NCBI GenBank assembly: GCA_964496765.1 | Contig: CAZCAP010000001.1 | Coordinates: 63,609 to 95,608 of the forward strand | Origin: an uncultured archaeon | GTDB taxonomy: Archaea; Iainarchaeota; Iainarchaeia; Iainarchaeales; CSSED10-239 | Direction of reading: 5' to 3' | DNA: 32,000 nt | Part shown: piece by piece, positions 4,645-30,359 of the stretch | Layout: each line of letters opens with the position of its first letter | How positions within the stretch are numbered: position 1 is the stretch's first letter | Notes under the pieces: model-generated | The model's input: the letters and a program-made list of their open reading frames with translations, nothing else | Told to the model about the DNA's origin: nothing | Databases searched by the model: none | Position numbers and translations under genes: made by a program

Positions 4645-4802
4645 AATCAAAACCTCCTTTAACAAAGAGAAATGCAATGTCATTAATTAATGTTACTTAG
4701 ATAATATATTTATGGTGAAAATAGTTTAAATACCTATCTTTTTCCTAAAAAAGAGGTATTTTTATTTACTTTCGATTATTATATAGATATAAGTGATTAT
4801 TT

Positions 4803-6212: not shown

Positions 6213-7409
6213 CTACTTTAAAATATATATCTTTAAAGGAGGAAAACCATTAAACCCAACTGAACTCAAGGTTGGAACATAGGCTCCTGCAGTTAAAACA
6301 TACAACCTATCCCCTTCTTTTAGACCTGTTGGAAGAGTATATTTATAATCCTCATATAGAACATCAAGGGAATCACAGGTTGGCCCTGCTAAAATAATTT
6401 CCTTAGAATCCTTTGAAGAAAGAATTCTCTCAGAAAAGATTGGATATTTAATTGATTCATTAATTGTATCAAATAATCCATTATATATTCCACAATCAAT
6501 GTACACCCATTCATATTGATTAATAATTGATTTCTTGGATATCATAATTACCTCAGTAACAAGAACACCAGAATCTGCAACAATTGATCTTCCTGGTTCA
6601 ACTATAATGGTTGGAAAATTATCTCCGAAATCATCCTTTAATATTCTTGTGATTTCTTTTGTATAGGTATCAATGGATGGAGCAGACTTTAGATAATGTG
6701 CTGGAAAACCACCACCAATGTTTATTGCCTTTAGATCAATCCCATCTGCTTTCACAGAATCAAATAAATACCTACATTGGGACACAGCATTATCCCATTG
6801 TCCAACATCTCTTTGCTGGGATCCAACATGGAAGGATATCCCATAGGGTATCAATCCAAGATTCTTTGCTTCAATAATTAAATGATAAATCATGTCTGGA
6901 TGAGCACCAAACTTTCTTGAGAGTGGCCAATCAGCTTCTCCACCTTCATTAATAATTCTAAAAAACACGTTAGATCCAGGAGCATTATTTGATATTTTTT
7001 TAAGATCAGTAATTGAATCAGAAACAAATAACCTAATTCCTTTTTCATAGGCATATTTCACATCTTCTTCTTTCTTAATTGTGTTTCCAAAGGAAATTCT
7101 ATCTGGAGTAACACCAAGCTTTAATACCTGTTCAAGCTCAAAGATAGTTGCAACATCAAAACAAGAACCCTTACTTGCAAGTAACTCTAGAACTTCAGGC
7201 ATGGAATTTGCTTTTACTGCATAATATATCTTAGCATAGGGCATAAGACGAGCTAACTCATCAAACTTATCTGCAATTTTTCTGAGATCAACAACAAGAA
7301 AAGGAGTTTTCTTATCTTTTGCAAATTCCTTAACATCATTCAACTCTTCTAAAGTCAAATAATCAAATATATTTTTTGAATCCCCATTTCCCATTCTAAT
7401 AATCACCAT
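6213..7409 (-). CDS. PLP-dependent group IV (alanine-racemase-fold) decarboxylase, ornithine/lysine/arginine decarboxylase-like, paralog A
   Basis: Motifs present: YAVKAN (PLP lysine), HVGSQ, GGGFP, EPGR and GPTCDS. The start may be the internal Met6 (7394), given a TATA-like tataaatt at 7419-7426. Confidence 0.85.
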   Translation of the reverse strand: MVIIRMGNGDSKNIFDYLTLEELNDVKEFAKDKKTPFLVVDLRKIADKFDELARLMPYAKIYYAVKANSMPEVLELLASKGSCFDVATIFELEQVLKLGVTPDRISFGNTIKKEEDVKYAYEKGIRLFVSDSITDLKKISNNAPGSNVFFRIINEGGEADWPLSRKFGAHPDMIYHLIIEAKNLGLIPYGISFHVGSQQRDVGQWDNAVSQCRYLFDSVKADGIDLKAINIGGGFPAHYLKSAPSIDTYTKEITRILKDDFGDNFPTIIVEPGRSIVADSGVLVTEVIMISKKSIINQYEWVYIDCGIYNGLFDTINESIKYPIFSERILSSKDSKEIILAGPTCDSLDVLYEDYKYTLPTGLKEGDRLYVLTAGAYVPTLSSVGFNGFPPLKIYILK

Positions 7410-7516: not shown

Positions 7517-8701
7517 TTATTTTAAAATATAGGCCTGTAGAGGAGGAAATCCATTAAACTCAATGGAGCTATAGGTTGTTGTGTATGCTCCAGTACTAAA
7601 AATATATAGTCTATCTCCTTCTTTTATATCAGAAGGAAATGAATACTTGTAATCCATATACAAAACATCCATTGAATCACAGGTTGGTCCAGCAAGAATA
7701 TATTCTTTCCTATCCTTAGATGAATTTGGGTTGTCTACAAATATTGGATACTTAATTGATTCATTAATTGTTTCAACAAGCCCACCAAACAAACCACAAT
7801 CAACATACAACCATTCATATTGATTTAAAACAGATTTCTTGGATTTCATAACAACTTCTGTTACAATTACTCCAGCATCCCCCACAAGTGAACGCCCTGG
7901 CTCAATAATTATTTCAGGAAGATTTTCTCCAAAGTCTTCAGTTAATCTTCTTGTTATTTCGTTAGCATACACATCAAGTTCATGGGTTGGTTGAAGATAA
8001 TGTGCTGGAAAACCACCCCCAAGATTAATTAATTTCAATTGAATACCATCTGCTTTCACAGAATCAAATAAATACCTACATTGGGAGATTGCTGTATCCC
8101 ATTGTCCAACATCCCTCTGTTGGGATCCAACATGGAAGGATATTCCATAGGGAACTAAACCAAGATTCTTTGCTTCAATAATTAGATGATAAACCATGTC
8201 TGGATGAGCACCAAACTTCTTTGAGAGCGGCCAATCTGAATCTCCTCCTTCTGATAGAATTCTAAAAAACACGCAAGATCCTGGTGCATTTACAGCAAGC
8301 TTCTTAATGTCTGCTGTTGAATCTGAAGCAAATAGCCTAACTCCCTTTTCATAGGCATATCTAATATCTCTATCTTTCTTAATTGTATTTCCAAAAGATA
8401 TTCTATCAGGAGTAATTCCAAGATTTAATAGTTTATTAAGTTCAAAAATGGTTGCAATATCAAAATTAGAACCCCTATCTGCAAGAAGCTTAATTACTTC
8501 CTCATGGGGATTTGCTTTAACCGCATAATATATTTTTGCATAGGGTAGGTTTTTCCTAAGCTCACTATATCTCATATCTATTTTATTAAGATCTAAAATT
8601 AGAAAGGGAGTATTCTTATCTTTTGCAAACTCTTTAATGTTTGTAAACTCATCAAAGGTCATATAATTCAATATAGACCTGGAAGAAGAATCAATTACCA
8701 T
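7517..8701 (-). CDS. PLP-dependent group IV decarboxylase, ornithine/lysine/arginine decarboxylase-like, paralog B
   Basis: Carries the same motif set as paralog A and is collinear along its full length. By eye, roughly two-thirds to three-quarters of residues are identical to A. Confidence 0.85.
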   Translation of the reverse strand: MVIDSSSRSILNYMTFDEFTNIKEFAKDKNTPFLILDLNKIDMRYSELRKNLPYAKIYYAVKANPHEEVIKLLADRGSNFDIATIFELNKLLNLGITPDRISFGNTIKKDRDIRYAYEKGVRLFASDSTADIKKLAVNAPGSCVFFRILSEGGDSDWPLSKKFGAHPDMVYHLIIEAKNLGLVPYGISFHVGSQQRDVGQWDTAISQCRYLFDSVKADGIQLKLINLGGGFPAHYLQPTHELDVYANEITRRLTEDFGENLPEIIIEPGRSLVGDAGVIVTEVVMKSKKSVLNQYEWLYVDCGLFGGLVETINESIKYPIFVDNPNSSKDRKEYILAGPTCDSMDVLYMDYKYSFPSDIKEGDRLYIFSTGAYTTTYSSIEFNGFPPLQAYILK

Positions 8702-10500: not shown

Positions 10501-10992
10501 TTAGTTTAAAATATATATTGAGATTGTAAGAATTGTTGCAAACAAAACCCATAGAGCATATGGAATTAATAAATATGCAGATACTCTATTAATTTTATAA
10601 AAATAAACTATTGTAAACACTATCAATATCTCTAATATAACTATTTCTATACTTGATATTAATAAGAGATGTGCTTCAAAGAAAAGGTAACACCATAGTG
10701 CATTTAAAAAAAGTTGAATAATAAATAAAATCTTAGCAATATTAAATGTATTTCTTAACTTATGATGAACTTTTGAAATAAGTAATAAATAAAAGGATAC
10801 ACCAATCAAAATAAAAAGAATTGTCCAGGCTATTGGGAAAACAAAGTTTGGTGGTAGAAAGAAGGGTCTATTAATCAGCAAATACCAGGTAGCTGTGTTG
10901 CGTCCAGTAAAAAAAGATCCAATATATGCTGTTAATGCTACTAGAAACACAGACAACAAAAGTGCCTTTAGCTTAAGCTTAACTTTATTCAT
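10501..10992 (-). CDS. tspO: TspO/MBR family tryptophan-rich sensory protein
   Basis: A five-TM, 163-aa protein with TATWYLLINRPFFLPPNFVFPIAWTILF and NALWCYLFF, the TspO signatures (WY..L.kP...PP...F...W..LY; N..W...FF). Confidence 0.85.
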   Translation of the reverse strand: MNKVKLKLKALLLSVFLVALTAYIGSFFTGRNTATWYLLINRPFFLPPNFVFPIAWTILFILIGVSFYLLLISKVHHKLRNTFNIAKILFIIQLFLNALWCYLFFEAHLLLISSIEIVILEILIVFTIVYFYKINRVSAYLLIPYALWVLFATILTISIYILN

Positions 10993-12390: not shown

Positions 12391-12546
12391 AAATTATTCT
12401 TATCCTATTTTTGTATTTTAAAAGAGTGACTTCTTTTAAATTTTATTATCTCTTCGATTTTAAATTAAGAAAAAGTTACTTCTAGTAATATATAATATAC
12501 TATAGAAAGAATATATAAATATATGGAAAATTCAAAAATCTAGTAA

Positions 12547-13956
12547 TTATAACCCAATTGTATTTTTAAAAGAAACATCTTTTACATATTTTTTAGTGCA
12601 TCTTTCTTTATAGGTATCAATAATTACCTTAAGATATTTTTTATTTAGATTAGATAAATCAGTAACATTGAATTGATTAGAAGTCCAAAGTGGTAAGTAA
12701 TAATTTAATAACCATTCATCCCAACTATTAACCATTTTAATACCATATTTTTTTGGATTATTAGATATAGCACTTCCTGGATAGGGCTTAAACAAGCTAG
12801 GGAGTATAAAATCAACTTGTTTAGTTAAAATTAAGCGCTTAATTTCATTTAAATTTTGGTTAATTGTTTTATTAGTAGTACCTGGAAGTGCAATCATCCA
12901 ATACACCCCAATTAATGCATTAGAATTGTCTCTTATGATTTGCATTGCTTCTTTCATCTGGCTATAACTTAATTGCTTGTTATTCTTATGAAGAACAGAA
13001 TCATTACAATCTTCAACACCCAAGTTAATCAGTTTAAAATTTGCTTCATCCAACTTTCTTACAATTTCTGGTGTGGTATGATTTGCTCTCAAGTCACAAA
13101 CAAAATATAAATTATTTAAATTTGATTTGATAATTGCATTCATTAATTTCACAAATCTGTTAACATCAATGCAAATTATATTGTCTGAAAAATGAATGGG
13201 GGTATTTGGAAGAAGGTGCTTATTTAAAAACTTTAATTCAGCAATAATATCGGTTGTTTTTCTAAATCTTATTGGGCCCTGAAACTTTGCACAAAATGCA
13301 CAATTATATAAACATCCTCTCATATAGGTAATGTTTATATTATAATTATTCAAATCATCATCAAATAAAGAATAATCAGATGTGGGAATGCGTTCATTAC
13401 CCAAATAAGTAATAGATTTATTAATTACAATTCTATCTTTCTGTTTATACCCAATACCATTTATTTTACTAAGAGGTTTGCTTGTTAATAATTTCAGAAA
13501 AGAAATCTCTCCTTCTTCCAAGACTACAAAATCTACAAATTTAGATTTTAAATAAGTTTTAGGATCATTAGTTGGACCTGAACCACCAATTACAACTTTA
13601 ATGTTTGGATTACTTTTTTTAATATTTTTTGCAATGTTTAAAACAATAGAAAGAAAAGGAGATTTTGCGGTTATACCAATATAATCATATTTTTTTATAT
13701 TTGAATTAATTTTATTCAAATCCAAATAATTGCAGTAGTCTATCTTAATACCTTTAATATTCGTTTTAAGATAGGTGCTCAAGGTTAGTAATCCTATTGA
13801 AAAGGTTTTTTTTGTGTAATTTATTACAGATGCACCTTTTGTTTCTGCCCACACATCCTCTAGTTCACACTTAAGCCTATTCAACCTTTCAAAATACTTT
13901 GGTTGAACAAAGGGAACTGAAGGAATATCAATTAAACCAATTCTCAAACAAAACAC
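12547..13956 (-). CDS. B12-binding-domain radical SAM enzyme (class B, methyltransferase-like)
   Basis: The N-terminal Rossmann-like region (IGITAKSPF...VVIGGSGPT) is followed by the GCLYNCAFC CxxxCxxC cluster. It overlaps the upstream gene by 29 nt. Confidence 0.8.
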   Translation of the reverse strand: MFCLRIGLIDIPSVPFVQPKYFERLNRLKCELEDVWAETKGASVINYTKKTFSIGLLTLSTYLKTNIKGIKIDYCNYLDLNKINSNIKKYDYIGITAKSPFLSIVLNIAKNIKKSNPNIKVVIGGSGPTNDPKTYLKSKFVDFVVLEEGEISFLKLLTSKPLSKINGIGYKQKDRIVINKSITYLGNERIPTSDYSLFDDDLNNYNINITYMRGCLYNCAFCAKFQGPIRFRKTTDIIAELKFLNKHLLPNTPIHFSDNIICIDVNRFVKLMNAIIKSNLNNLYFVCDLRANHTTPEIVRKLDEANFKLINLGVEDCNDSVLHKNNKQLSYSQMKEAMQIIRDNSNALIGVYWMIALPGTTNKTINQNLNEIKRLILTKQVDFILPSLFKPYPGSAISNNPKKYGIKMVNSWDEWLLNYYLPLWTSNQFNVTDLSNLNKKYLKVIIDTYKERCTKKYVKDVSFKNTIGL

Positions 13957-14869
13957 CTTTTTTATTATACAATTGATTTCTAGGATCGCAATTTTTACAA
14001 GTTGGTTTCTCTAGTATAGGACTTTTTTTAATTTTAGTGTATATTTTATTTAGATCCTCTTTTTTAAAATTACCAAACAAACAAAAACTATCCGAGTTAT
14101 TATCAAATGAATTACATCTATATATATTCCCATTAATATCTATAAAAATCATTTTCTCGCATATTCTACAAGCATTTTTTAAATAGAACTTCGAAGTATA
14201 TTCTTCACGCTCTAAATTATCAAAATCAATATTTGCTTTAAAATTAAATGAAGAAATTATCTTGGATTTATTTTTAATATTATTATAAATAGTGTTAAAT
14301 TCAATCCATTGCGTCTTAGTTAAATGCAAATCATTATTAAACTTAACTGGAATTAAGTGCCATTCATCTACTTTTTCAATAAAATCAAATTCACTAAATT
14401 TAATAATTTTTTTATAATTAACATTAGTTATAACTGTATTTATTGATGTTTTTATATTCATGCGTTGTGCTTTTTTAATTCCAGAAATAACAATTGTAGT
14501 TAAATTCTTGATTCCTCTATTCTTTGAATGATAATCATCAACACTATCTAAAGAAAAAATGATTCCATTAGGCAACTTATATTTAAATAATTTATCCCAA
14601 TTATCAACTAAAGTGCTTCCATTGGTTATCAACCCAAAATTCAGATTATTATCCTTTAAAAATTTATTTAACAAAGTAAACTTTGGATAGAGAGTTGGCT
14701 CCCCACCAGTGAATATTACATTAGCATATCCTTTACTCTTAAAAAATAAAAGTATATCCAATAATGTATTATACTTAAAATGCTCTGGCTTTCGTTTCCA
14801 AATACTACACATTCTACAATTTGCATTACATTTAGTTGTAAGGCGTATAAATATAATCTTAGAATTCAT
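13928..14869 (-). CDS. Radical SAM enzyme with a C-terminal Cys-rich SPASM/twitch-like extension
   Basis: TTKCNANCRMC (CxxxCxxC) and FTGGEPTLY are present. The C-terminal cysteines are CRICEK...YRCNSF...FCLFG...CKNCDP. Confidence 0.8.
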   Translation of the reverse strand: MNSKIIFIRLTTKCNANCRMCSIWKRKPEHFKYNTLLDILLFFKSKGYANVIFTGGEPTLYPKFTLLNKFLKDNNLNFGLITNGSTLVDNWDKLFKYKLPNGIIFSLDSVDDYHSKNRGIKNLTTIVISGIKKAQRMNIKTSINTVITNVNYKKIIKFSEFDFIEKVDEWHLIPVKFNNDLHLTKTQWIEFNTIYNNIKNKSKIISSFNFKANIDFDNLEREEYTSKFYLKNACRICEKMIFIDINGNIYRCNSFDNNSDSFCLFGNFKKEDLNKIYTKIKKSPILEKPTCKNCDPRNQLYNKKGVLFENWFN

Positions 14870-14872
14870 ATT

Positions 14873-15961
14873 TTATTCATTTATTTTAAACTTTTTAGTG
14901 AAATCAGAATAATCTATAAAGGGCATAAATGTAAACCCTATATGTTTATTCCAAAAATCAGTTGCATCTTGTTTTGTAGAGGCATCAAATTTACCTAGTT
15001 TTTTTATAATTGGTTCTTCAATTAGTGGTAAAGGATAGATCCTTTCAAGAAAAGGATTCTTTTTAAGAAGTTCAATTGCTTGAACCTTATTATTTACAAG
15101 AAACACAATTCTTTGATAAGCAGACGTGTAACTAGGAGCAGTTTTTTGAACTTTAATATATTTATATTTAGTTAATTTATTAATTATTTTGTTCCCATTA
15201 TTAATCCTATCTTCTAATAACAATGTAAAATACTTTAATTGAGGCAATAATACAGCCGCCTGAAATTCAGTCATTAAATTTTTACCACCAATAAATTCAG
15301 AAACAAATACCCTGTCTTTATTTTGAACTAGGCCTGCATGTCTTATTGCCTTTGCATAATCATATACCTTTTTTGATGAAGTTACAAATAGACCTCCATC
15401 TCCACAACTAATGTGTTTACAACTATTAAAACTAAAAGCAGAACAATCTCCAAAAGTTCCAACTGATTTTTTTTTATATTTTGCACCAAATGCTTGTGCA
15501 CAATCCTCGATCAAATAAATTTTGTTTGATTTACAAAAATCACTCACTTCTTTAATCCCTGATGGATTTCCAAATAAATGAACAAAAATTATAGCTTTTG
15601 TTTTCTTGGTTACGCATTTTTTAAGTTCAATCACATCTAAATTAAATGTATTTGGATTTGTTTTACAGAGTACAGGTGTAGCTCCCACATTTAGAATTGC
15701 TTGTGCAGTAGCAATAAAAGTAAAACTGGGGATAATAACTTCATCCCTTTCTTTAATATTTAGTGCTTTAATACACATTTCTAAAGCACTACTTCCTGAA
15801 TTAATTGTTAAACATTTTGCACCAATTAATGATTCACATTTACTTTGTACTTTATTATTAAATTCGTCTCTATAAATATTCCATTTCTTATTATCTATTA
15901 ATTTATTTAGATTTTTTTTAATATCTAGGTCAATTTGATTAAAAACATTAATTATATTCAT
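14873..15961 (-). CDS. DegT/DnrJ/EryC1/StrS-family PLP-dependent sugar aminotransferase
   Basis: NSGSSALE, IIPSFTFIATA, IEDCAQAFGA and FSFNSCKHISCGDGG (PLP lysine context) are typical of the family. Confidence 0.85.
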   Translation of the reverse strand: MNIINVFNQIDLDIKKNLNKLIDNKKWNIYRDEFNNKVQSKCESLIGAKCLTINSGSSALEMCIKALNIKERDEVIIPSFTFIATAQAILNVGATPVLCKTNPNTFNLDVIELKKCVTKKTKAIIFVHLFGNPSGIKEVSDFCKSNKIYLIEDCAQAFGAKYKKKSVGTFGDCSAFSFNSCKHISCGDGGLFVTSSKKVYDYAKAIRHAGLVQNKDRVFVSEFIGGKNLMTEFQAAVLLPQLKYFTLLLEDRINNGNKIINKLTKYKYIKVQKTAPSYTSAYQRIVFLVNNKVQAIELLKKNPFLERIYPLPLIEEPIIKKLGKFDASTKQDATDFWNKHIGFTFMPFIDYSDFTKKFKINE

Positions 15962-15975
15962 AATATTATCACTTC

Positions 15976-16725
15976 TTAAAATGTAGAATCATCTTTATCT
16001 TGCCATTCATTTTCCAGCTTATCTATGTATTCTTGTTTTATTTCAAAATATTTCTTTTGAACAATAGTTAATCCTGCTCCAAATTTGAAATCAAAAGATT
16101 GAAGCTCCATATCTTTTAAAATTTCTAATAGTACCTTTCTTGGGCCACTCCATTTTGGGTTTTTAGACCTACTAATGGTATCATGAAATAAAATTAATGC
16201 ATTTTCTAATAACTTATCCTTAAAAGCACCCCAATCGAATTTAACAAATTCATAAAAATGAGAAGCATCAATACATAATAAATCAATAGAATCTATACCT
16301 TTATAGACATCAGTATTTACAAATTCTTGAGTAGTAAATAAATAATGTTGAATTATATTTCCCACATCAAAACTATTGAACCACTCTTTTGTTTTTTGTG
16401 TATCTTTCCAAAAGTCATCATCCAAAGAAGGATCAATAAAGTAGGCTTTACAATCAATATCATTATCTTTCATACCTTTCGCAATTAAAATTGGTAAAAA
16501 ACCTCTACCTAATCCAATCATAACAGCTATTTTGGGTTTATACAATCTTGCAAATGAATAGTATAACCAACCTAAACCAATATTTTTAGTATTTATGTCT
16601 TTTTCTTCGTTATAGTCATATCGTCCACCAAATGATGGTTCTCCAGCAGCTACTGAGCCCTGTCCAGTTCTATTAGGATAGAGATCCTTATTTGATAAAA
16701 AATTATCTAACCAACTATCTAGCAT
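15976..16725 (-). CDS. Class I SAM-dependent methyltransferase-fold protein (Methyltransf_24 / TylF-CmcI-like)
   Basis: VMIGLGRGF is a glycine-rich motif I variant. LLCIDASHFYEFV and ILFHDT are typical of this subfamily. The assignment is tentative. Confidence 0.55.
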   Translation of the reverse strand: MLDSWLDNFLSNKDLYPNRTGQGSVAAGEPSFGGRYDYNEEKDINTKNIGLGWLYYSFARLYKPKIAVMIGLGRGFLPILIAKGMKDNDIDCKAYFIDPSLDDDFWKDTQKTKEWFNSFDVGNIIQHYLFTTQEFVNTDVYKGIDSIDLLCIDASHFYEFVKFDWGAFKDKLLENALILFHDTISRSKNPKWSGPRKVLLEILKDMELQSFDFKFGAGLTIVQKKYFEIKQEYIDKLENEWQDKDDSTF

Positions 16726-16738
16726 TTATATCACCTAA

Positions 16739-17434
16739 TTAAATGTAATTCCCACCATTTATACTAATTATTTGACCAGTAATGTGCTTTGATTTAATTG
16801 ATAACAAAAAATCTATTAAATCTACTATATCTTCTGGTTCTCCTAATCTCTTCAAGAGGATACTATTTATAATTACATTTTTTTTAATACCCTGGGCCTT
16901 CAAGTTCTCATGTAACAAAGATGTATTTATAGGTCCAGGAGCAATTATGTTGACTCTTGTTTTTGGAGCTAATTCTTTTGCTGCAACTTTAGCAAAGCAC
17001 TCTAGTGCAGCCTGTGTTGGAGCATATAGACTTGATCCAAATGGATTTGATCTTGGTGCAGTTGAAGAAATAAACACTATTGAACTATCTTTATTAAGCA
17101 CAGAACCTAGGTCTTTCAAAACTAACATGTAACTAAATAAGTTTGTATTAAATACATCTATAATTTTTTCATAATTAATATCTACAATATTGGTTAGATC
17201 ATAGTGGGAAGCATTAAAAATAATATAATCAACTGTCTTAAACTTTTGCTTAATTTGTTTAATAAGTTCATTTATTTTTTGTGTGTTTTTTAAATCAAAT
17301 TCAATATAGGTTATATTCTTTTTATTAATCAATCTACTTCTTTGAATAGAAATAATCTTGTTACTTGTTTTATACTTATTTATACAAGCTTTTCCAATTC
17401 CCTTACTTCCACCAAATAACAATATATTCTTCAT
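16739..17434 (-). CDS. Short-chain dehydrogenase/reductase (SDR) with a Y-x-x-x-Q in place of the catalytic Y-x-x-x-K
   Basis: LLFGGSKGIGKA (cofactor loop), NAS, ISST, LYAPTQAAL and NIIAPGPINT are present. The Gln codon CAG (plus 17022-17024) was verified at the DNA level. Confidence 0.8.
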   Translation of the reverse strand: MKNILLFGGSKGIGKACINKYKTSNKIISIQRSRLINKKNITYIEFDLKNTQKINELIKQIKQKFKTVDYIIFNASHYDLTNIVDINYEKIIDVFNTNLFSYMLVLKDLGSVLNKDSSIVFISSTAPRSNPFGSSLYAPTQAALECFAKVAAKELAPKTRVNIIAPGPINTSLLHENLKAQGIKKNVIINSILLKRLGEPEDIVDLIDFLLSIKSKHITGQIISINGGNYI

Positions 17435-18753
17435 CTTTCCACCTTATTATGATAATTTATTTCTTTTTTAAATATAATGTGCTTAAGTATTTTATAAACC
17501 CCATGTATTGCTCCTAGTGATTTATAAAATACACCTAGAGGTATCTCTAAACCAAACAACCTAAGTTTATACACTTTAAAATCTGTATTTTTATTAAGAA
17601 AGTTAATTACACACAAATATCCGCTTAAATAATAAACCCAGACAAAAATAATCAATAACCAGAACAATAAAGCATTATACATTGTAAAAATAATTAACAC
17701 AAATATAACCAAAAAAGGTCGTAATGCCCATTTAATTGCTAAAAACAGATGATTACAGTTTTGTAAAAATGCTATAGATAAAAACTTACTACTTCTTAGA
17801 ATTCTATAGAATGTTAGATTTCCGAAAAACCAAAAAGTGTGTTGCTTATATAATGTAATTAGGCTTTCGGGGGATTCACAATAATCCTCAAAAGGAACAG
17901 GGTAAATTGGAATGTTATTTTTAGTTAAGGTAAAACCAATTTGAATTCCATCTGCAGGCCCAATCTCTGAAAAACCATTAATCCTAGTTAATACTTCCAA
18001 CTTAAAAAATTCTCCGTGCCCCATACAATAGGGAGGAAATCTACTTTTCTTATTTGCTAATATTCTTCTATTGGTTGTAATAAACTGATTAATTTCAAAT
18101 AAATAATTCCACATAGTTTGATAATAGGCATTAGCCAATAGAACAACATTATGTTTAATTTTATGTGAATTTAATAAATAATTCATATTCTGTTGAAATG
18201 CAACTTTTTTATTATCTTGTGTATATTTATAATTAATATATTTCAATGTGTCTAAATCAGGGTGAGAATCAGCATCATAGACCCCAATAAAAGTATGTTG
18301 ATGAGTATTGTTCTTTTTAATATATTCTAATGCTACATTTAATTGATAAGCTCGTTTTTGAGCACTACCAGCATACTCAATAAATTTTACATTTTTAGAT
18401 TTATGTTCTAAAATAAATTTATTTATGAAATCTTTGGTTTTAAGATTATCTTTTTTTCTAGAAGACTCTTTCTTATCTAGAGCAACAATAATTTCAAATT
18501 TGTTTTTTGAGTAATTAAAAGAGGAAATGTGCTTAAGTGTTTTTTCAATTACGTTTTGTTCTCTTAATGCGGGGATAAGAATATAAAAATATACTTTTTC
18601 AATAGTTGATTTTTTTTTAGTTAAAAATTGTTTTCGCTCTTTAAGATAATAGCTAAATGAAACAAATAAACTAATATATCCATTAATAATAAAATAGAGT
18701 ATAATAAATAATCCAACAATTGCAAATGTATATATTAAAACCATAAATAACAT
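17431..18753 (-). CDS. Membrane-embedded family-2 glycosyltransferase, synthase-like
   Basis: It has an N-terminal TM helix and a GT-A core (ILIPALREQNVIEKTL, GSAQKRAYQLN, GVYDADSHPD). KQHTFW resembles the processive Q-x-x-R-W motif. Several C-terminal TM helices follow. It overlaps the SDR gene start by 4 nt. Confidence 0.7.
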   Translation of the reverse strand: MLFMVLIYTFAIVGLFIILYFIINGYISLFVSFSYYLKERKQFLTKKKSTIEKVYFYILIPALREQNVIEKTLKHISSFNYSKNKFEIIVALDKKESSRKKDNLKTKDFINKFILEHKSKNVKFIEYAGSAQKRAYQLNVALEYIKKNNTHQHTFIGVYDADSHPDLDTLKYINYKYTQDNKKVAFQQNMNYLLNSHKIKHNVVLLANAYYQTMWNYLFEINQFITTNRRILANKKSRFPPYCMGHGEFFKLEVLTRINGFSEIGPADGIQIGFTLTKNNIPIYPVPFEDYCESPESLITLYKQHTFWFFGNLTFYRILRSSKFLSIAFLQNCNHLFLAIKWALRPFLVIFVLIIFTMYNALLFWLLIIFVWVYYLSGYLCVINFLNKNTDFKVYKLRLFGLEIPLGVFYKSLGAIHGVYKILKHIIFKKEINYHNKVER

Positions 18754-18821
18754 AGATTAATAAGTATTATAAATTATTTGTATATGATGAAAAACCTTAG
18801 ATAACACAAGTAAATATAGAA

Positions 18822-18926
18822 TCCCTCCTCCCAGATTCGAACTGGGGATCTACCGGTCACTGCCTTTCTTCTCAGTGTTTACATAAAGTCTACAGCCGGT
18901 CGCACTAACCGCTGTGCTAAGGAGGG
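18822..18926 (-). tRNA. tRNA-Tyr(GUA) with a 32-nt intron at the canonical 37/38 position (intron 18858-18889)
   Basis: Manual fold: acceptor CCCTCCT/AGGAGGG (C1:G72), D arm GCAC/GTGC, anticodon stem ACCGG/CCGGT, loop CTGTAGA, T arm CCCAG-TTCGAAT-CTGGG. The intron forms helix-bulge-helix-bulge-helix (CTGT/GCAG central helix, 3-nt bulges AGA and TGA, outer helix CTTT/AAAG). No CCA is encoded. Confidence 0.9.
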
Positions 18927-19000
18927 ATTTATTCCTTAATAAAATACGGTTATATAATATATTATAAAGACAAAAAGGTATATAAATAGATTTCTCATAA

Positions 19001-19039: not shown

Positions 19040-19648
19040 ATGAAAAAAGAATACACAGGAATAACCTATAAAAAAATAGATTATTCAAACAAGAGAGAAT
19101 TAACACTAGACTTGCTTAAACAAATCTATGAAATAAATGAATTAATTAATAAAGATATAATACCATTTCATAGATATGCTACTGCTCTTCAAACTAAACT
19201 TGGAAATGAAAAAAACAATCCTGAATGTTTCTATCTTGCTTTTAAAAATAATGAACTAATTTCGGGAATAGAAGGTTACTTTACAACAAAGGATCATTTC
19301 CATATAAATCATGGGTTCACTAGGAAAGAATATCAGAGAACAGGAGTTGGAACCAAAATTCTAATAAGAACTGTAGCTGATTTACGTGTACACCATAATG
19401 TTAAAACAATTGATGCAGTAATACACTCAGATGGTTTTAATATTGTCACAAAAAAGATAACAGGGCTTTACCCAATTAATAAAGAAAAAACAATCTATAG
19501 AATAAATAAATCAAATAAATTCAAATATGAATTTAAATCAGAACCAGAGATAGGAACAACGCACAAGAGAAATACAATTACAGTAAATAAAAATAAGGTA
19601 TCTAGATTTGAACTTATTAAAAAATTATTTAAAGGCAAAAGAAAATAG
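19040..19648 (+). CDS. GNAT-like N-acetyltransferase domain protein (tentative)
   Basis: FTRKEYQRTGVGTKILIRTV resembles GNAT motif A (Q/R-x-x-G-x-G/A). The rest is unrecognised. A TATA-like actatttatagg lies ~30 nt upstream. Confidence 0.45.
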   Translation: MKKEYTGITYKKIDYSNKRELTLDLLKQIYEINELINKDIIPFHRYATALQTKLGNEKNNPECFYLAFKNNELISGIEGYFTTKDHFHINHGFTRKEYQRTGVGTKILIRTVADLRVHHNVKTIDAVIHSDGFNIVTKKITGLYPINKEKTIYRINKSNKFKYEFKSEPEIGTTHKRNTITVNKNKVSRFELIKKLFKGKRK

Positions 19649-21568: not shown

Positions 21569-21850
21569 GGCTAGTGGTCTGCTATAAGCCGCTTTCTGTA
21601 CTAAATTGGCAATCTGTCTTATGCGGAGGTAAATTTCTCCTTGCACCACACTCTTTCTGATAAATTTTTCAGCAATTCTTGTTTCTCCTCAGTGATTACA
21701 CATCACAGGATAACAGAAACAAGCTGTCCTTTTTCTGTTCAGAAAGCATCCTTTGCAGGATGTTTGTCTTTTTATTAAGGGTGAGCGGACTTTCCTTGTC
21801 TGTTAAACCCAAAGGCTTAACAAGCATGCCAAAACACAAACCACTAACAT
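21569..21850 (-). ncRNA. rnpB: RNase P RNA
   Basis: The minus strand contains ACAAGGAAAGTCCGCTCACCC (CR-I, GGAAAGUCC) and TACAGAAAGCGGCTTATAGCAGACCACTAG (CR-V, ACAGAAnnnGGCUUA). The termini pair as P1 (TTAGTGGTTTG / CAGACCACTAG, two G:U pairs). The region is locally GC-richer and has only mutually overlapping spurious ORFs. The ends are approximate, within a few nt. Confidence 0.8.
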
Positions 21851-22700: not shown

Positions 22701-22773
22701 GTGGACTCTGCGAGACTCGAACTCGCGGCCTCGTCCTTGCAAGGGACGCGATCTACCAACTGATCTAAGAGCC
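22701..22773 (-). tRNA. tRNA-Ala(UGC)
   Basis: Manual fold: acceptor GGGCTCT/AGAGTCC with the G3:U70 alanine identity pair, D arm GATC/GATC, anticodon stem CGTCC/GGACG, loop CTTGCAA, T arm GCGAG-TTCGAGT-CTCGC. No CCA is encoded. Confidence 0.93.
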
Positions 22774-22877
22774 CAATATATAATTTATTGTTGATTTTCT
22801 TACTATATACTAATATAATTATGCTTAAATATATTTATAAATACATCTTATACTAAATAATTTTTTAAAAATCAAAT

Positions 22878-23693
22878 TTAAGGAAATACTAGTTTCCAGC
22901 TTAAACAATTAAATAAAGGTAAAATAAAGATTAATAATAAAAGAATTAATAAAGACAGGATTAAGTAAAAAATGATTTGTTTAACCTTTATTTTCTTTTG
23001 CTTATTTGTTCTTTTAAATGCTTTTCCTAATCTAAAAAAGAGTATTGGAATCAAAAAAGATTGAATAACATAAAAAGTACACCAAATTGATGGAGAGGCT
23101 GTGCAAACATTCACAGAGAAAAGAAAATAACCAACAAAAACATAAATTGCACTAAGAATGAAAGAAATATCTGCAATAGTTAATAAATAAATTAATATTG
23201 TATGCTTTGATTTATCATCTTTAATCTCAGAATTTATTTTGAAAGCACAAATATGCCAATAAATAAAAAAGAACAACCAAACTATTGCCCACAAACCAGC
23301 AGAACTATGTTGCAAATAAAAGCTTGTTGATCCAAAAGTTAGTGGAGAAAAAATTATTTGCAAGGAAACAAGAAAAATAGGAATAATAGCTATCCAACTA
23401 TATATTTTTGTATTTGATAAGATTTCAAGTGATCTAAGAAAGAAATATACAGCACAAATTGAAATTATTAAACCAATTTTGTAGATTATTGTATTATTTG
23501 TTAATAAAGATAAAAATTCAAAAAATTGATGCAATCCAATACATAAAAATATAGCCATTGAAGAATATAAAAATGGTAGTAACCATTTTTTTTCTGAATT
23601 TTCATATTTATTTTTATAATAGAAAAAATAAATTACAGCAGATATTAGAATAATTAAAGATGTGGCTAACTGCACTCCAAGACTATAACACAT
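22878..23693 (-). CDS. Polytopic membrane protein, unknown function, located between the 16S rRNA and tRNA-Ala
   Basis: A 271-aa ORF with about 8 hydrophobic helices. It has its own TATA-like motif at 23713-23727. Confidence 0.6.
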   Translation of the reverse strand: MCYSLGVQLATSLIILISAVIYFFYYKNKYENSEKKWLLPFLYSSMAIFLCIGLHQFFEFLSLLTNNTIIYKIGLIISICAVYFFLRSLEILSNTKIYSWIAIIPIFLVSLQIIFSPLTFGSTSFYLQHSSAGLWAIVWLFFFIYWHICAFKINSEIKDDKSKHTILIYLLTIADISFILSAIYVFVGYFLFSVNVCTASPSIWCTFYVIQSFLIPILFFRLGKAFKRTNKQKKIKVKQIIFYLILSLLILLLLIFILPLFNCLSWKLVFP

Positions 23694-23712
23694 AAGTTAA
23701 TTAATGTAATAT

Positions 23713-23727
23713 AAATTTATAAATAGA
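23713..23727 (-). promoter_or_regulatory. Archaeal TATA-box-like element between the 16S 3' end and the 271-aa membrane-protein gene
   Basis: aatttataaatagat, ~20-35 nt upstream of the ATG at 23693. It is the same motif as at 1472-1487. Confidence 0.35.
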
Positions 23728-23913
23728 TATTGTTTAATTGAAAATAATCTACTCTGATAATAGGATAGAAAATAATAATTATCAGAACTTAGAATTAAAT
23801 TGAAAATCGAAGTTAAGATCTTGTATGTGGAGAAAACTTTCTTTACATTTTTTCTTTGAAATAGACATTTGAGTCATCTCAAAATCAATTTATATTTTGT
23901 ATATAAATTATTT

Positions 23914-25411
23914 AGGAGGTGATCCGTCCGCAGGTTCCCCTACGGACACCTTGTTACAACTTAGTCTGTCTCGCGGGATATAGAATTACTTCGACCTCTA
24001 AAGATTGAAGTTCATCCACACTCCACTCAACTGGCTTGATGGGCGGTGTGTGCAAGGCGCAGGGACATATTCACCGCGCGATAGTGACACGCGATTACTG
24101 GGGATTCCAGCTTCATGAGGGTGAGTTGCAACCCTCAATCCGGACTTGGATTACGTTTCTGTGATTGCCACCCCCTTTCGGGTTAGAGACACATTGTCGT
24201 AACCATTGTATGCCGCGTGTTGCCCAGGACATTAGCGCTATACAGACCTACCTTCGCCCATTCCTTCCTCATTGTTACCAATGCAGTCTTATTAGAGTGC
24301 CTCTCCATCATAAAGAAAGAAAGTAGCAACTAATAATATGGGTCTCGCCCGTTACCTGAGTTAACAGGAAGCTTCGCAGTACGAGCTGACGATGGCCATA
24401 CAGCAGCTTTCAGCGTATCAGGTAAACCCTTCAGATTGACCGTCATCTGGCTGTCAGCCCTGGTGAGATATCTGGCGTTTCATCCAATTAAACCGCAGCA
24501 TCCACCCCTTGTAGTGCACCCCCGCCAATTCCATTAAGTTTCAGTCTTGCGACCATACTTCCCAGGTGGTGGATTTAATGATTTCTCTTCGGCCCTGAGT
24601 TAACTCGTAGTTAACCCAACACCTAATCCACATCGTTTACAGCTGGGACTAACCGGGTATCTAATCCGGGTTGCGCCCCCAGCTTTCGTGTCTCATTGTC
24701 AGATTAGTTCTCGTTTGGCGCCTTCGCCACAGGTGGTCCTCCTAGTATCTTAAGATTCTACTCCTACTCTAGGAATACCCCAAACGTCTCCCTATCTCTA
24801 GTTCTGTCAGTATCTTTTGCAATTCAACTGATTAAGTCAGCTGCTTTCACAAAAGACTTAACAAACCAACTACACACGCTTTAAACCAAATAATGCTGGA
24901 TACCACTCGGGGATTACGTATTACCGCGGCGGCTGGCACGCATATTGCCCCCCCCTTATTCGTATTGTTATCGACACAATACAAAAGCTTACGAATGTAA
25001 GCACTTGGAATTCCTTTATCACGGTTTCCCGCATTGTAAAATTTTCGTAACTGCTGCACCCCGTAGGGCTAGGAACATTATCTCAGTTTCCTTCTCCGGG
25101 CTCCCTCTCTCAAGGCCCGTACAGATCTTCGGCTTGGTAGGCAATTACCCTGCCAACTACCTAATCTGACGCAGTCCCATCTTTTCGCACTTAAATCTAC
25201 ATGACAACTTAAGCCTTTGAAAAATCAATCATTCCAGATTTGATTTTCTATAGAGCATTATCCTTAGTTTCCCAAGTTTTACTCTTCAAAAAGGTAGGTT
25301 GACTACGCGTTACTGAGCCGTTCGCCAAAGTTCATCATGGTTAGAACTTTTAGACTTGCATGTCTTAGTCGAATTCCAATAGCAGTACCCACCAGCAGGA
25401 TCAGCTGGAAT
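23914..25411 (-). rRNA. rrs: 16S (SSU) rRNA, archaeal, complete (~1.5 kb)
   Basis: The minus strand starts ATTCCAGCTGATCCTGCTGG...GGCGAACGGCTCAGTAACGCGT. It contains GTGCCAGCCGCCGCGGTAA, ATTAGATACCCGGTTAGTCC and TGCACACACCGCCCATC, and ends ...GGGGAACCTGCGGACGGATCACCTCCT. Confidence 0.97.
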
Positions 25412-26185: not shown

Positions 26186-26653
26186 CTAATTTTTTTTATT
26201 TTTAGATAGTATTTCTTTTGCAATTTTTTGTCTTTTCTTAATATCCATTTTAGGCCCAACTAATGTAGTTATATATCCAGGATATTTTTCAAAATAAATA
26301 TTACCTGACAACTCTCCAAACTTGGAATCATCAATTTTGGGCATAGGGTATAATTTAGTATGAATGTGATTTACTCCTTGCCCTTCAAAAACCATTGCAA
26401 CCCTCTTAACCCCTAATCCTTTTTCAAGAATCTTTGCAACCTTCTTTGAAATTAATAGTAACTTTGTATATACGCTAGGAGATAAATCAAAAACATAAGA
26501 ACCATAATGTTCTTTTGTTAATACAAGAGTTGCACCTTTTATATTTGGGTGGGCATCTAAAATAGCAATAAAAATTTTATCTTCATATATGATTGCAGCT
26601 TCAAGTTCCTTCTTTGCAATCTTACAAAACACACAATCAGATTTTTGCTTCAT
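26186..26653 (-). CDS. HIT-family protein with a variant histidine triad (H-I-H-T-K)
   Basis: CVFCKI...IYEDKIFIAILDAHPNIKGATLVLTKEH is the HIT N-terminal half. The triad region reads GQGVNHIHTKLYP, with Lys replacing the third His (verified on DNA). An 8-nt gap separates it from the downstream NTase gene. Confidence 0.75.
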   Translation of the reverse strand: MKQKSDCVFCKIAKKELEAAIIYEDKIFIAILDAHPNIKGATLVLTKEHYGSYVFDLSPSVYTKLLLISKKVAKILEKGLGVKRVAMVFEGQGVNHIHTKLYPMPKIDDSKFGELSGNIYFEKYPGYITTLVGPKMDIKKRQKIAKEILSKNKKN

Positions 26654-28720: not shown

Positions 28721-29947
28721 ATGAGGCTCAGATTTGCTAAATTTGGAAAAATAAGAGAAAACATTAAATCAACTAGTTCTAGAAAAATAAATAACACATC
28801 AACTAAAGAAAGAATTGCTAATAACACAAGCTTCAGTAGAAAATTAACTTCAACTAGCAATCTATCTATTAAGAAAAAAATACTTGCTGCACAAAAATTA
28901 GCAAAAACATTACCTTCATTAAAACAAAAGGAGCCAGCTAAACCATCTATTAAAAAAAAAATCAAACAAATTAGTAGGCCCCCACTAGTAAATGAACATA
29001 TATCAAAAACTAAAATTAATCCAATTAATAATTTACACGATCTAATTTCTCAAAAGAAACAATTGATTCATAATCACATTGAATGGATATGGACTGAATA
29101 TAATAAAAAAAGGTTAGCCAAAGATAAAAGAATAAGCACAACGATAATTTATGAAACACTAAAAGCAAAAGAACTATTGAAAGAAACAGAACCTCTTGAG
29201 ATAAAAGTAACTAGTCATTATGATGTAGAAATAGAAGAACTAAAGAAAGAATTAAAAGAATATGAGGAAAACCCTGAACGGATTGTATTTAAAATTAAAA
29301 AAGAAGAAGCAAAAATAAGGGACCTTGATGAGAAAATTAAAAAAATAAACCTTCAATCTATTATTGATGAACGTAACATCTTACATAATGAGCTTACGGT
29401 ACTCTCAAAGTTAAACCAAGAACACCATCATCTAAGAGATGAATTTACTAAACAAAAATATGTTCGTGATGGAAAATTGAACGTAATTGCATTACTAAAG
29501 GAAAAGTTAGATTCAATCTGTAAAGAACATAAAGTAACAGGAAGGTTAAAGATAGCATTAAACTCTTTGGTTGATAATTATACAGTTAAATATTTTAAAC
29601 AAGATATAATTAATCACATGAAATATAGAAATCAAAGAATAGATGAACTAGACCTAAAATATTCACAAAAGGAACATGAACTTAAACCATTACTTTTTGA
29701 GAAAGAAAATATTGAAAAAAATATCAATTATCAAAAGAAACATTTACCCGTTCATCAAAGAATTGTAAAAAAATATGAGATAAGAAGAGAAATAGATGAT
29801 CTTGAAGGATTAAGAAGAAGAGAAATAAACCAAATAAAGGTTGAAAAAACAAATGAACAAATCTATTCTCAAAAATTAGATCAAGCAAGAAAATTAGCCA
29901 AAATTGAAAATAGATTATATAAACTTATTAATTATATTAAAAAATAG
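28721..29947 (+). CDS. Lys/Glu-rich coiled-coil protein (408 aa), unknown function
   Basis: The N-terminal ~100 aa are basic, Ser/Thr-rich and low-complexity. Long heptad-like K/E-rich segments follow. No enzymatic motifs were seen. Confidence 0.6.
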   Translation: MRLRFAKFGKIRENIKSTSSRKINNTSTKERIANNTSFSRKLTSTSNLSIKKKILAAQKLAKTLPSLKQKEPAKPSIKKKIKQISRPPLVNEHISKTKINPINNLHDLISQKKQLIHNHIEWIWTEYNKKRLAKDKRISTTIIYETLKAKELLKETEPLEIKVTSHYDVEIEELKKELKEYEENPERIVFKIKKEEAKIRDLDEKIKKINLQSIIDERNILHNELTVLSKLNQEHHHLRDEFTKQKYVRDGKLNVIALLKEKLDSICKEHKVTGRLKIALNSLVDNYTVKYFKQDIINHMKYRNQRIDELDLKYSQKEHELKPLLFEKENIEKNINYQKKHLPVHQRIVKKYEIRREIDDLEGLRRREINQIKVEKTNEQIYSQKLDQARKLAKIENRLYKLINYIKK

Positions 29948-29957
29948 AGGAATTAAT

Positions 29958-30359
29958 ATGAAAGATTGTATATTTTGTAAAATTAAGAAAGAAAAGGTTC
30001 CTTGTCACAAAGTTTATGAGGACAAGGATTTTATTGCTTTCCTGGACATCAATCCAATTGCAAAAGGGCATACTCTAGTTATTCCAAAGAAGCATTTCAC
30101 AAACGTTCTTGATGCTGATGATAAATTACTTAAAAAATTACTTCCAGTGATTAAAAAGATAATGTTGAACCACAAAGAAAAACTTAATTGTGATGGATTC
30201 AATATCCTAAATGCAAATGAAAAAGCAGGCCAACAATCAGTATTCCATCTCCACTTCCATATCATTCCAAGATTTAATGATGATGGGTATAACACATGGC
30301 CAATAACAGGATATGAAAACGAAGATCTTACAGAATTATCTGAAAAATTAAAATTGTGA
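29958..30359 (+). CDS. HIT-family nucleotide hydrolase (Hint-like), canonical triad
   Basis: MKDCIFCKI...VYEDKDFIAFLDINPIAKGHTLVIPKKH...GQQSVFHLHFHIIPR. The ATG at 29958 is preceded by tagagg. I discarded the longer track ORF start at 29904, which overlaps the previous gene. Confidence 0.9.
   Translation: MKDCIFCKIKKEKVPCHKVYEDKDFIAFLDINPIAKGHTLVIPKKHFTNVLDADDKLLKKLLPVIKKIMLNHKEKLNCDGFNILNANEKAGQQSVFHLHFHIIPRFNDDGYNTWPITGYENEDLTELSEKLKL

Follow-up and report, generated by a model that had tools for sequence, protein, structure and literature searches.

What might one archaeal operon make with two radical S-adenosylmethionine (SAM) enzymes, an aminotransferase, a methyltransferase, a dehydrogenase and a membrane glycosyltransferase? 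The question is raised by six minus-strand genes of an uncultured Iainarchaeota archaeon, found in a 32,000-nucleotide stretch of DNA (contig CAZCAP010000001.1, positions 63,609 to 95,608; hereafter the window). From the upstream end, they encode a membrane family 2 glycosyltransferase (GT2), a classical short-chain dehydrogenase/reductase (SDR), a class I SAM-methyltransferase-fold protein, a pyridoxal phosphate (PLP)-dependent aminotransferase of the DegT/DnrJ/EryC1 family (DegT), a small radical SAM enzyme and a B12-binding, class B radical SAM enzyme. All six open reading frames (ORFs), lying between positions 12547 and 18753, were verified where a sequence-only reading of this DNA had placed them, and the spacings that it gave (-4, +13, +14, +3 and -29 nucleotides, from the GT2 to the B12 enzyme) match exactly. 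Intergenic distances elsewhere in the window are mostly 70-420 nucleotides, falling to 13 and 16 at two junctions, and the spacing suggests that the block is co-transcribed as one sugar-tailoring operon. The domain assignments are borne out by Pfam, where all calls for the six proteins exceed the gathering score save SPASM (PF13186; 19.4 bits against 21.5), and the archaeal, AT-rich host by a complete archaeal 16S gene and a guanine-cytosine (GC) content of ~29% in the window. With moderate confidence, we read the locus as a sugar-tailoring operon made of a five-gene core and an archaeal B12 radical SAM enzyme, in which a sugar would undergo radical dehydration, transamination and methylation.

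The joining of sugar-tailoring enzyme types to a membrane synthase-like GT2, which the sequence-only reading had pointed out, is real, and its order recurs in relatives. In a database of 5.8 billion proteins, searched with the small radical SAM enzyme, the methyltransferase and the B12 enzyme and followed by neighbourhood reading, the core GT2-SDR-methyltransferase-DegT-small radical SAM enzyme is found in recurring order in about seven lineages. Because these lineages are independent and their flanking genes unrelated, the shared gene order goes beyond chance. The B12 enzyme is an archaeal addition to this core, present in three archaeal lineages only, and one lineage (cassettes L001, L021 and L022) does without the SDR. 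The archaeal metagenome-assembled genome (MAG) L001 has the order TruD-GT2-methyltransferase-DegT-small radical SAM-B12 enzyme, and L021 and L022 are further copies of this type. A second archaeal MAG, L002 ('Candidatus ainarchaeum sp.'), has GT2-TruD-SDR-methyltransferase-DegT-small radical SAM-B12 enzyme. L006/L007, L008 and L010/L011 carry the five core genes in order and lack the B12 enzyme, and L012 has a rearranged cassette with the SDR moved and one extra gene. The sequence-only reading had taken the six genes as a fixed unit, to be given up if they were not co-conserved; since four of the seven lineages lack the B12 enzyme and one lacks the SDR, not all six are, and the five-gene core takes the place of that unit.

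The cassette is also rare and crosses domain boundaries. Hidden Markov models (HMMs) from the cassette alignments were run on 177 loci, which include 80 viral and 72 metagenome loci with more distant radical SAM relatives, and revealed no further cassette there except one partial locus (L107). Two of ~185,000 reference species carry it: a reference-genome scan with a five-sequence alignment of the small radical SAM enzyme gave the two known archaeal MAGs and otherwise distant, partial matches, and a scan of viral contigs gave distant radical SAM cores only. L008 is bacterial, as judged from its S15_bact (111.6 bits, cutoff 63.65) and PNPase (867 bits, cutoff 525) matches, and L006 encodes a bacterial-type prepilin. 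The contigs that bear the cassette range from 25 to 65% GC, and in the window its GC equals that of its flanks. The cassette is not archaea-specific, since a bona fide bacterium has it and contigs of 38-65% GC carry it too. Identities between the window proteins and those of L006 and L008 are 50 and 46% for the GT2, 63 and 57% for the methyltransferase, 59 and 57% for DegT, and 50 and 46% for the small radical SAM enzyme. The window proteins are as similar to these (45-63%) as to the archaeal L001 and L002 versions, an equality that argues for horizontal exchange between domains. Together, the sequence comparisons indicate a rare, self-contained cassette, probably exchanged between DPANN-type archaea and bacteria.

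The reading of the chemistry begins with the small radical SAM enzyme. It scores 76.7 bits against Pfam Radical_SAM, and the residues invariant in seven cassettes are C14-x3-C18-x-M20-C21, GGEP (55-58), C234, C252, C291 and C294. The last four form the pattern CX12GX4C...CX2C, which is the first half of the SPASM motif plus CX2C. As just four C-terminal cysteines are conserved, the domain would hold one auxiliary cluster of the twitch type rather than the two of a full SPASM domain, with its seven-cysteine motif CX9-15GX4C...CX2CX5CX3C...C; of the SPASM/twitch-like tail first proposed, the single-cluster twitch stands and the full SPASM does not. In Foldseek searches of the PDB, the AlphaFold2 model (pLDDT 87) matches BlsE of blasticidin S biosynthesis (7VOB) best and over its full length (E 2.4e-16, TM 0.79/0.76); lower in rank come SuiB, SkfB, viperin-like enzymes, DesII, anSME and MoaA, and the top 50 do not include BtrN. 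A profile built from the seven cassette sequences gives BlsE 100 bits (E 1.4e-27), SkfB 73 and a viperin-like enzyme 63, and finds BtrN in the twitch region only (22 bits, E 5e-4). The enzyme carries the BlsE signature of CxxxCxMC, GGEP and a cysteine-bearing twitch hairpin, whose cysteines align at both positions, and it stays below the equivalog cutoff of the BlsE family model (TIGR04466; 69.8 against 400 bits). In BlsE itself the first two elements are C31xxxC35xM37C38 and G73GEP, and the substrate is a glycoside, not a nucleoside diphosphate (NDP)-sugar (PMC3715490). Two papers that cite Lee et al., JACS 2022 (PMC11117688, PMC10267522) describe BlsE, initially called a decarboxylase, as a radical 1,2-diol dehydratase. 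By sequence profile and modelled fold, the small enzyme is a BlsE-like, twitch-type radical SAM protein. The closest enzyme of known function is thus a radical diol dehydratase, and by analogy the small enzyme is predicted to perform radical 1,2-diol dehydration of a sugar. It is this relative, along with the enzyme set around it, that suggests the dehydration route. Other close structural relatives act in a similar way: like BlsE, viperin and DesII generate a radical at a sugar carbon and then expel a substituent from the neighbouring carbon.

Two other roles would turn on the same enzyme. Its structural matches include viperin-like enzymes, and two PADLOC models of prokaryotic viperins (pVip) score 83.8 and 65.4 bits, so the cassette might be imagined as an anti-phage system that makes a chain-terminating nucleotide. 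However, the 83.8-bit match is confined to the radical SAM core (profile positions 5-203 of 262), and the C-terminus is a cysteine-containing twitch as in BlsE, not the part of pVip beyond position 203. Instead of a full-length match in a stand-alone or kinase-linked context, the gene shows strict linkage to the GT2, methyltransferase and DegT genes, and the other cassette proteins have no PADLOC match, which makes a defence role very improbable. Slightly less probable still is that both radical SAM enzymes modify a ribosomally synthesised and post-translationally modified peptide (RiPP). Such a role would suit the structural neighbours SuiB, SkfB and anSME and the frequency of B12 radical SAM enzymes in RiPP clusters, but the genes are packed too tightly to hold a precursor ORF, the cassettes share no conserved small ORF, the conserved partners are a DegT enzyme and a membrane GT2, and the best relative, BlsE, is not a peptide maturase.

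A more serious competitor is the aminoglycoside-like logic proposed in the sequence-only reading, in which a BtrN-type radical SAM enzyme (or a GenD2-type SDR) makes a ketone for DegT, the product is then N-methylated and, in the manner of GenD1, C-methylated, and the six genes act as one unit. The four-cysteine, one-cluster layout is that of the BtrN twitch, and BtrN is detectable by profile; yet BlsE outscores it by profile and BtrN falls outside the leading structural matches. With BlsE closest by profile and fold and BtrN distant, radical deoxygenation in the style of BlsE and a PLP enzyme, or of AprD4/AprD3, fits better than the gentamicin/BtrN analogy.

DegT offers this competitor some support. 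The protein scores 254.8 bits against PF01041, and both the PLP-binding lysine (AFSFNxxK) and the aspartate of ED(C/A)AQ, as expected of the family, are invariant in the seven cassettes. Because the Schiff-base lysine is invariant, DegT is taken as a true aminotransferase, not a histidine-type ColD/E1 dehydratase. Its best solved relatives are the scyllo-inositol transaminase 7b0d (154 bits), the 2-deoxy-scyllo-inosose aminotransferase BtrR (2c7t, 145 bits) and QdtB (139 bits), so that cyclitol enzymes lead the NDP-sugar enzyme narrowly; no NCBIfam equivalog cutoff is reached (best 173.5 against 375 bits). Cyclitol aminotransferases as nearest kin speak for an aminoglycoside route, but the locus has no cyclitol synthase.

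The methyltransferase and the SDR fit that route less well. The methyltransferase matches PF13578 with 43.7 bits (cutoff 26.3) and has neither an NCBIfam match nor a sequence match among solved structures. Its AlphaFold2 model (pLDDT 92) retrieves the cation-dependent O-methyltransferases SafC, CCoAOMT-like enzymes and TrmR in Foldseek (E ~1e-9, TM ~0.6). Conserved motifs comprise IGxGRGF (motif I), FIDPS, ID(A/G)xH and HD, preceded by a family-specific conserved N-terminal extension of ~60 residues, and at 43-63% identity this is the best-conserved cassette member. Pfam match, fold and SAM motifs are those of a cation-dependent class I O-methyltransferase, and from the modelled fold transfer to oxygen is the most likely reaction, against the N-methylation of the aminoglycoside scheme. 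The SDR (adh_short_C2 128 bits, adh_short 99 bits) is the least conserved member (31-43% identity). Among solved structures it comes nearest to glucose/ribitol dehydrogenases and FabG enzymes, which makes it classical rather than of the extended NDP-sugar type. The glycine-rich motif, the catalytic serine and an invariant tyrosine are present, and the lysine position of YxxxK reads Q in the window and E, R, K, R and Q in other cassettes, so that the N-S-Y-K tetrad is incomplete. Given this variable lysine and the FabG-like type, the SDR is doubtful as the oxidase of an oxidise-then-transaminate sequence, the part that it had first been assigned. An aminoglycoside-like route would have C-methylation in keeping with the dominance of C-methyltransferases among B12 radical SAM enzymes; set against the lineages that lack that enzyme or the SDR, it appears unlikely. 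A modified amino sugar remains a plausible product, as first proposed, whereas the gentamicin/BtrN logic and the six-gene unit attached to it need revision.

The B12 enzyme has the domains and cluster of a class B radical SAM enzyme: B12-binding PF02310 (42.0 bits, cutoff 32.1), Radical_SAM PF04055 (48.1 bits, cutoff 29.5) and a CxxxCxxC motif that reads CLYNCAFC in all three orthologues. Besides the window's own gene, the search of the protein database gave only two orthologues, 52-53% identical to it and both at the cassette end in archaeal MAGs, and the gene is a lineage-specific accessory added at the 3' end of the operon. The next relatives are ~30% identical and carry the NCBI name Patescibacteria; the nearest non-cassette relative with its context read (P0004) lies within a GT4/GT2/methyltransferase/PMT_2 glycan cluster. 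Among solved structures, the B12 enzyme comes closest to QCMT/MgmA (9ccb, E 4e-15), a class-1 cobalamin-dependent Csp3-methyltransferase. The leading NCBIfam matches, given as bits over cutoff, are PhpK (92.5/600), HpnJ (89.7/578) and a lipid-biosynthesis B12 radical SAM model (82/360), and none of the characterised subfamilies PhpK, HpnJ, MgmA/QCMT, BchE and GenK-like is reached (92.5/600, 89.7/578, 72.3/360 and 73.8/481). By sequence, methylation is not distinguishable from rearrangement.

The membrane GT2 matches Pfam Glyco_trans_2_3 (44.5 bits) and Glyco_tranf_2_3 (29.4 bits), with hydrophobic blocks at residues 1-35 and 335-386. Invariant in the seven cassettes are PALREQ, DADS (the DxD motif), FQQ, PPYCxGHGEF, DGIQ and a C-terminal K-x-E-R. 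Set against the D, DxD, (T)ED and QxxRW motifs of processive synthases such as BcsA, PgaC, HAS and chitin synthase, DAD, ADG and Q-H-T-F-W are present, the last as a QxxRW variant (Q304-H305-x-x-W308) in which Q, H and W are invariant and R is replaced by F, Y or L. The single sequence finds no solved relative; with the profile, the closest solved protein is PcManGT (6yv7, E 0.003), an archaeal 'minimal cellulose-synthase-like' mannosyltransferase, with weak BcsA matches over the QxxRW/transmembrane region, and the sole NCBIfam match is PgaC/IcaA (26.7 against 422 bits). The protein belongs to an uncharacterised family of ~440-residue membrane GT2 enzymes (483 representatives at E<1e-10, ~11 of them at orthologue level) and, by its motifs, is of a divergent cellulose-synthase-like type. 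Its presence bears on a further alternative, a biosynthetic gene cluster for a diffusible, antibiotic-like metabolite of nucleoside or aminocyclitol type instead of a surface glycan. Such clusters spread in the same rare, patchy, horizontal manner, and several of the closest characterised relatives (BlsE, BtrR, SafC) come from natural-product pathways. Nevertheless, an integral membrane synthase-like GT2 is strictly kept in the cassette, which has no scaffold-forming enzyme, transporter or resistance gene; reduced-genome archaea are among its hosts, and methyltransferase and GT2 homologues lie in a conventional polysaccharide cluster (L009), all of which makes a diffusible product quite improbable. 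For the wider methyltransferase family, the gene neighbourhood read at L177 was uninformative.

Put together, the favoured pathway would run as follows. The BlsE-like enzyme would abstract a hydrogen atom from a sugar carbon, and elimination of the neighbouring hydroxyl (1,2-diol dehydration) would give a deoxy-keto sugar. DegT would convert the ketone to an amine by transamination, giving a deoxy-amino sugar, which the methyltransferase would methylate, with O-methylation favoured by the fold. In the archaeal versions, the B12 enzyme would add a cobalamin-dependent methylation of an unactivated carbon, and the SDR would act as an optional redox helper. The GT2 could stand at either end of this sequence: it may install the completed sugar on an acceptor in the membrane or at the surface, or polymerise it, or it may first make a membrane-bound glycoside that the other enzymes then tailor. 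The second option is favoured because BlsE works on a glycoside, the best relatives of the SDR and DegT use substrates not attached to a nucleotide, genes that form NDP-sugars are lacking in the cassette, and its flanks in the window hold only housekeeping genes.

Much the same evidence would serve lipid head-group remodelling in the manner of HpnI/HpnJ/HpnK or of calditol, where the GT2 puts a sugar on a membrane lipid, which may have been scavenged from a host, the soluble enzymes rework the head group in place, and the B12 enzyme rearranges rather than methylates. A self-contained cassette without genes for NDP-sugar synthesis, a flippase or a polymerase, the glycoside substrate of BlsE (PMC3715490) and the non-nucleotide-linked substrates of the SDR and DegT relatives all accord with it, as does the rank of HpnJ and the lipid-biosynthesis model as second and third NCBIfam matches of the B12 enzyme. 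Those scores are far under their cutoffs, though, the GT2 matches neither HpnI nor any lipid glycosyltransferase model, and no conserved lipid-related gene lies nearby; we give this alternative a low probability.

Several points weigh against the dehydration-transamination-methylation pathway itself. All six proteins stay below the curated NCBIfam equivalog cutoffs and no publication on this gene set was found, which agrees with the earlier remark that no characterised archaeal glycosylation pathway could be matched to it. The small radical SAM enzyme is ~18% identical to BlsE, so its reaction type is extrapolated. The cassette lacks a nucleotidyltransferase, flippase or polymerase, and no other glycan genes occur in the window. 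The top solved DegT relatives use free cyclitols, not NDP-sugars, and the SDR, without its conserved catalytic lysine, is not of the extended NDP-sugar type. The GT2 appears too divergent in sequence for donor, acceptor or processivity to be assigned, and co-transcription is deduced from gene spacing alone.

To our knowledge, the sugar dehydratases and deoxygenases BlsE, AprD4 and DesII have so far come from actinomycete antibiotic pathways. If the proposed pathway is correct, a BlsE-like enzyme with a DegT partner and a membrane GT2 would bring that chemistry to envelope glycans or glycolipids and constitute a new route to deoxy-amino sugars. The sharing of the cassette by archaea and bacteria would be a clear inter-domain transfer of a surface-modification module, and the B12 addition implies that the archaeal lineages with this gene have a step that needs cobalamin; the window itself shows no gene for taking up or salvaging cobalamin. 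The product may be displayed at the surface and may take part in host interaction, as the sequence-only reading proposed. A bolder version, which we regard as tentative at best, is that the cassette makes an undescribed deoxy-amino sugar, C-methylated in archaea, through a BlsE-type dehydratase working in primary envelope biosynthesis; that this sugar is placed on the surface or on scavenged lipids, possibly for contact between episymbiont and host; and that the module has been exchanged between DPANN archaea and uncultured, possibly candidate phyla radiation (CPR)-type, bacteria. The operon is not a new category: sugar-tailoring operons with radical SAM chemistry are known, and every component belongs to a well-known superfamily.

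Positions of the six genes, their putative signals and other features of the window
Feature	Position	Strand	Detail	Basis
Membrane GT2	17431-18753	-	440 amino acids (437 if ATG 18744)	Pfam
Classical SDR	16739-17434	-	231 amino acids; 4-nucleotide overlap (ATGA) with GT2 stop	Pfam
Class I SAM-methyltransferase-fold protein (Methyltransf_24)	15976-16725	-	249 amino acids	Pfam
DegT/DnrJ/EryC1-family PLP aminotransferase	14873-15961	-	362 amino acids	Pfam
Small radical SAM enzyme, BlsE-like, twitch-type C-terminal domain	13928-14869	-	313 amino acids
B12-binding (class B) radical SAM enzyme	12547-13956	-	469 amino acids (466 if TTG 13947)
Putative archaeal promoter	18754-18821	-	between tRNA-Tyr and GT2; TATA-like TTTATAAT box at 18766-18773	sequence reading
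Putative archaeal terminator/operon end	12525-12540	-	oligo-T runs right after B12 enzyme stop	sequence reading, inferred
tRNA-Tyr (anticodon GUA)	18822-18926	-	~32-nucleotide intron at canonical position 37/38	E-value-mode search, 54.7 bits
DEAD-box helicase gene	starts 12390		156 nucleotides from the operon
AT-rich promoter-like box of the helicase gene	12489-12511
Antisense ORF	15606-15875		set aside
Antisense ORF	16782-17132		set aside
TspO/MBR-family membrane protein	10501-10992	-
GNAT acetyltransferase	19040-19648	+
RNase P RNA-like element	21569-21845	-	277 nucleotides	RF00010 (bacterial class A), 48.6 bits, E 3e-12
tRNA-Ala	22701-22774	-
ORF without Pfam match	22878-23693	-	271 amino acids
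16S gene	23914-25411	-	complete, archaeal
Orn/DAP/Arg-type PLP decarboxylase	6213-7409	-	tandem paralogue
Orn/DAP/Arg-type PLP decarboxylase	7517-8701	-	tandem paralogue
Decapeptide-repeat protein	2806-4683	-	625 amino acids	PF25296, 380 bits
HIT-family (histidine triad) protein	26186-26653	-
HIT-family (histidine triad) protein	29904-30359	+

These features delimit the operon at both ends. The B12 enzyme may start at the alternative TTG, for which a GGTG 6 nucleotides upstream and the alignment with the L002 start argue; its overlap with the small radical SAM gene would then be 20 nucleotides, not 29. Likewise, the second ATG is a possible start of the GT2: it lines up with the start in L001 and has the TATA-like box 22-29 nucleotides upstream, a distance that would suit a leaderless archaeal transcript. 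A consensus scan for promoter sites was uninformative (49 sites against 50 expected), and a scan for sigma-70 promoters and hairpin terminators stayed at chance level. Downstream, the operon is followed by the DEAD-box helicase gene with its own promoter-like box. Upstream lies the tRNA-Tyr gene, missed by ARAGORN and by the Rfam scan in gathering mode. The two antisense ORFs were set aside, as neither matches a Pfam family and both are enclosed by well-supported genes.

In L008 (6593-7914), the cassette is directly preceded by a phage-type integrase, tRNA-Arg and tRNA-His, which hints at island insertion and is only a lead. An island at a tRNA site was considered for the cassette and set aside: no att-like repeats were found in the window or in L008, no att-like tRNA repeat flanks the cassette, and tRNA adjacency is not kept in L001 or L002, in neither of which a tRNA was found. 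The sole flanking repeat pair, formed by the box at 12489-12511 and a copy at 18951-18973, resembles AT-rich promoter boxes.

Some neighbours of the cassette deserve mention. The tRNA pseudouridine synthase TruD adjoins it in L001 (833-2071) and L021 (191-1411) and sits inside it in L002 (3079-4338), between GT2 and SDR, where the window has tRNA-Tyr as neighbour instead. The archaeal TruD/Pus7 family acts on tRNA-Tyr, which makes the occurrence of one or the other beside the cassette curious, though it may stem from a single ancestral arrangement. A gene for a TspO/MBR-family membrane protein lies downstream of the cassette, within a few kilobases, in the window and likewise in L006 (13684-14079), an otherwise unrelated, bacterial-type locus. 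The divergent GNAT gene just past the tRNA could encode an N-acetylase of an amino sugar; no relative has a GNAT gene next to the cassette. In L012 (1056-8419 and 12586-13605; 65% GC), an extra 339-residue gene without a Pfam match lies between the SDR and the small radical SAM gene, and the cassette adjoins a divergent, RiPP-like set of B12 radical SAM genes, one beside a DUF5825 gene; at 20-22% identity these were ruled out as orthologues of the window's B12 enzyme. A different radical SAM-rich cluster is found in the metagenome locus L147 (2598-14169, SDBT01006886.1), with a DegT-like gene, three small radical SAM-like genes and three B12 radical SAM-like genes.

Elsewhere in the window, an otherwise empty intergenic gap holds a compact RNase P RNA-like element that scores under its gathering threshold of 100 bits. 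Between the 16S and tRNA-Ala genes (region 22701-25411, minus strand) stands the ORF without a Pfam match, and the 23S gene is not in the window; these surroundings suggest unlinked rRNA genes. Further along are the paired decarboxylases, a protein with eight 'Decapeptide repeat region' stretches, and two HIT-family genes less than 4 kilobases apart.

Among known systems, the B12 enzyme is comparable to QCMT/MgmA (9CCB), PhpK, GenD1/GenK and the non-methylating HpnJ, which share an N-terminal B12-binding Rossmann domain followed by a radical SAM barrel with CxxxCxxC. It differs in that all its B12 radical SAM scores lie 4-8 times under cutoff and its orthologues are confined to three archaeal cassette lineages. 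The GT2 resembles PcManGT (6YV7), BcsA and PgaC/IcaA in a GT-A domain flanked by transmembrane segments, a DxD motif, an aspartate at the TED position and Q-x-x-x-W in place of QxxRW. Unlike these synthases, which it matches at E-values of 0.003 to ~2, it replaces the arginine of QxxRW by F, Y or L and has its own signatures PALREQ, PPYCMGHGEF and a C-terminal KxER.

For the soluble enzymes, butirosin (BtrN/BtrS) and gentamicin (GenD2/GenS2/GenN/GenD1) biosynthesis offer a single twitch auxiliary cluster, a DegT relative in BtrR, and a SAM methyltransferase with a class B radical SAM enzyme in one locus. Here, in contrast, the BtrN match is weak and limited to the twitch, the SDR is FabG-like, the methyltransferase has an O-methyltransferase-like fold, the B12 enzyme lies outside the core and there is no cyclitol synthase. 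In apramycin and desosamine biosynthesis, radical SAM sugar elimination is paired with a reductase (AprD4 with AprD3) or with a DegT enzyme (DesII with DesI). DesII is a remote structural match of the small radical SAM enzyme (TM ~0.6, 12% identity) with different gene order and partners, and AprD4 is a weak match for the B12-type enzyme (21 bits).

Closest of all is BlsE of the blasticidin S pathway. The cassette contains no cytosylglucuronate synthase or other blasticidin gene, it has a membrane GT2, a methyltransferase and an SDR in their stead, and its hosts are DPANN archaea and uncultured bacteria rather than Streptomyces. Even so, of all solved proteins BlsE stands nearest to the small radical SAM enzyme, with CxxxCxMC, GGEP and twitch-hairpin cysteines in both, and a deoxy-keto sugar formed by dehydration would be a substrate for a transaminase. 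BlsE has a PLP enzyme, BlsH, as its pathway partner, and here an aminotransferase-family gene stands beside the radical SAM gene.

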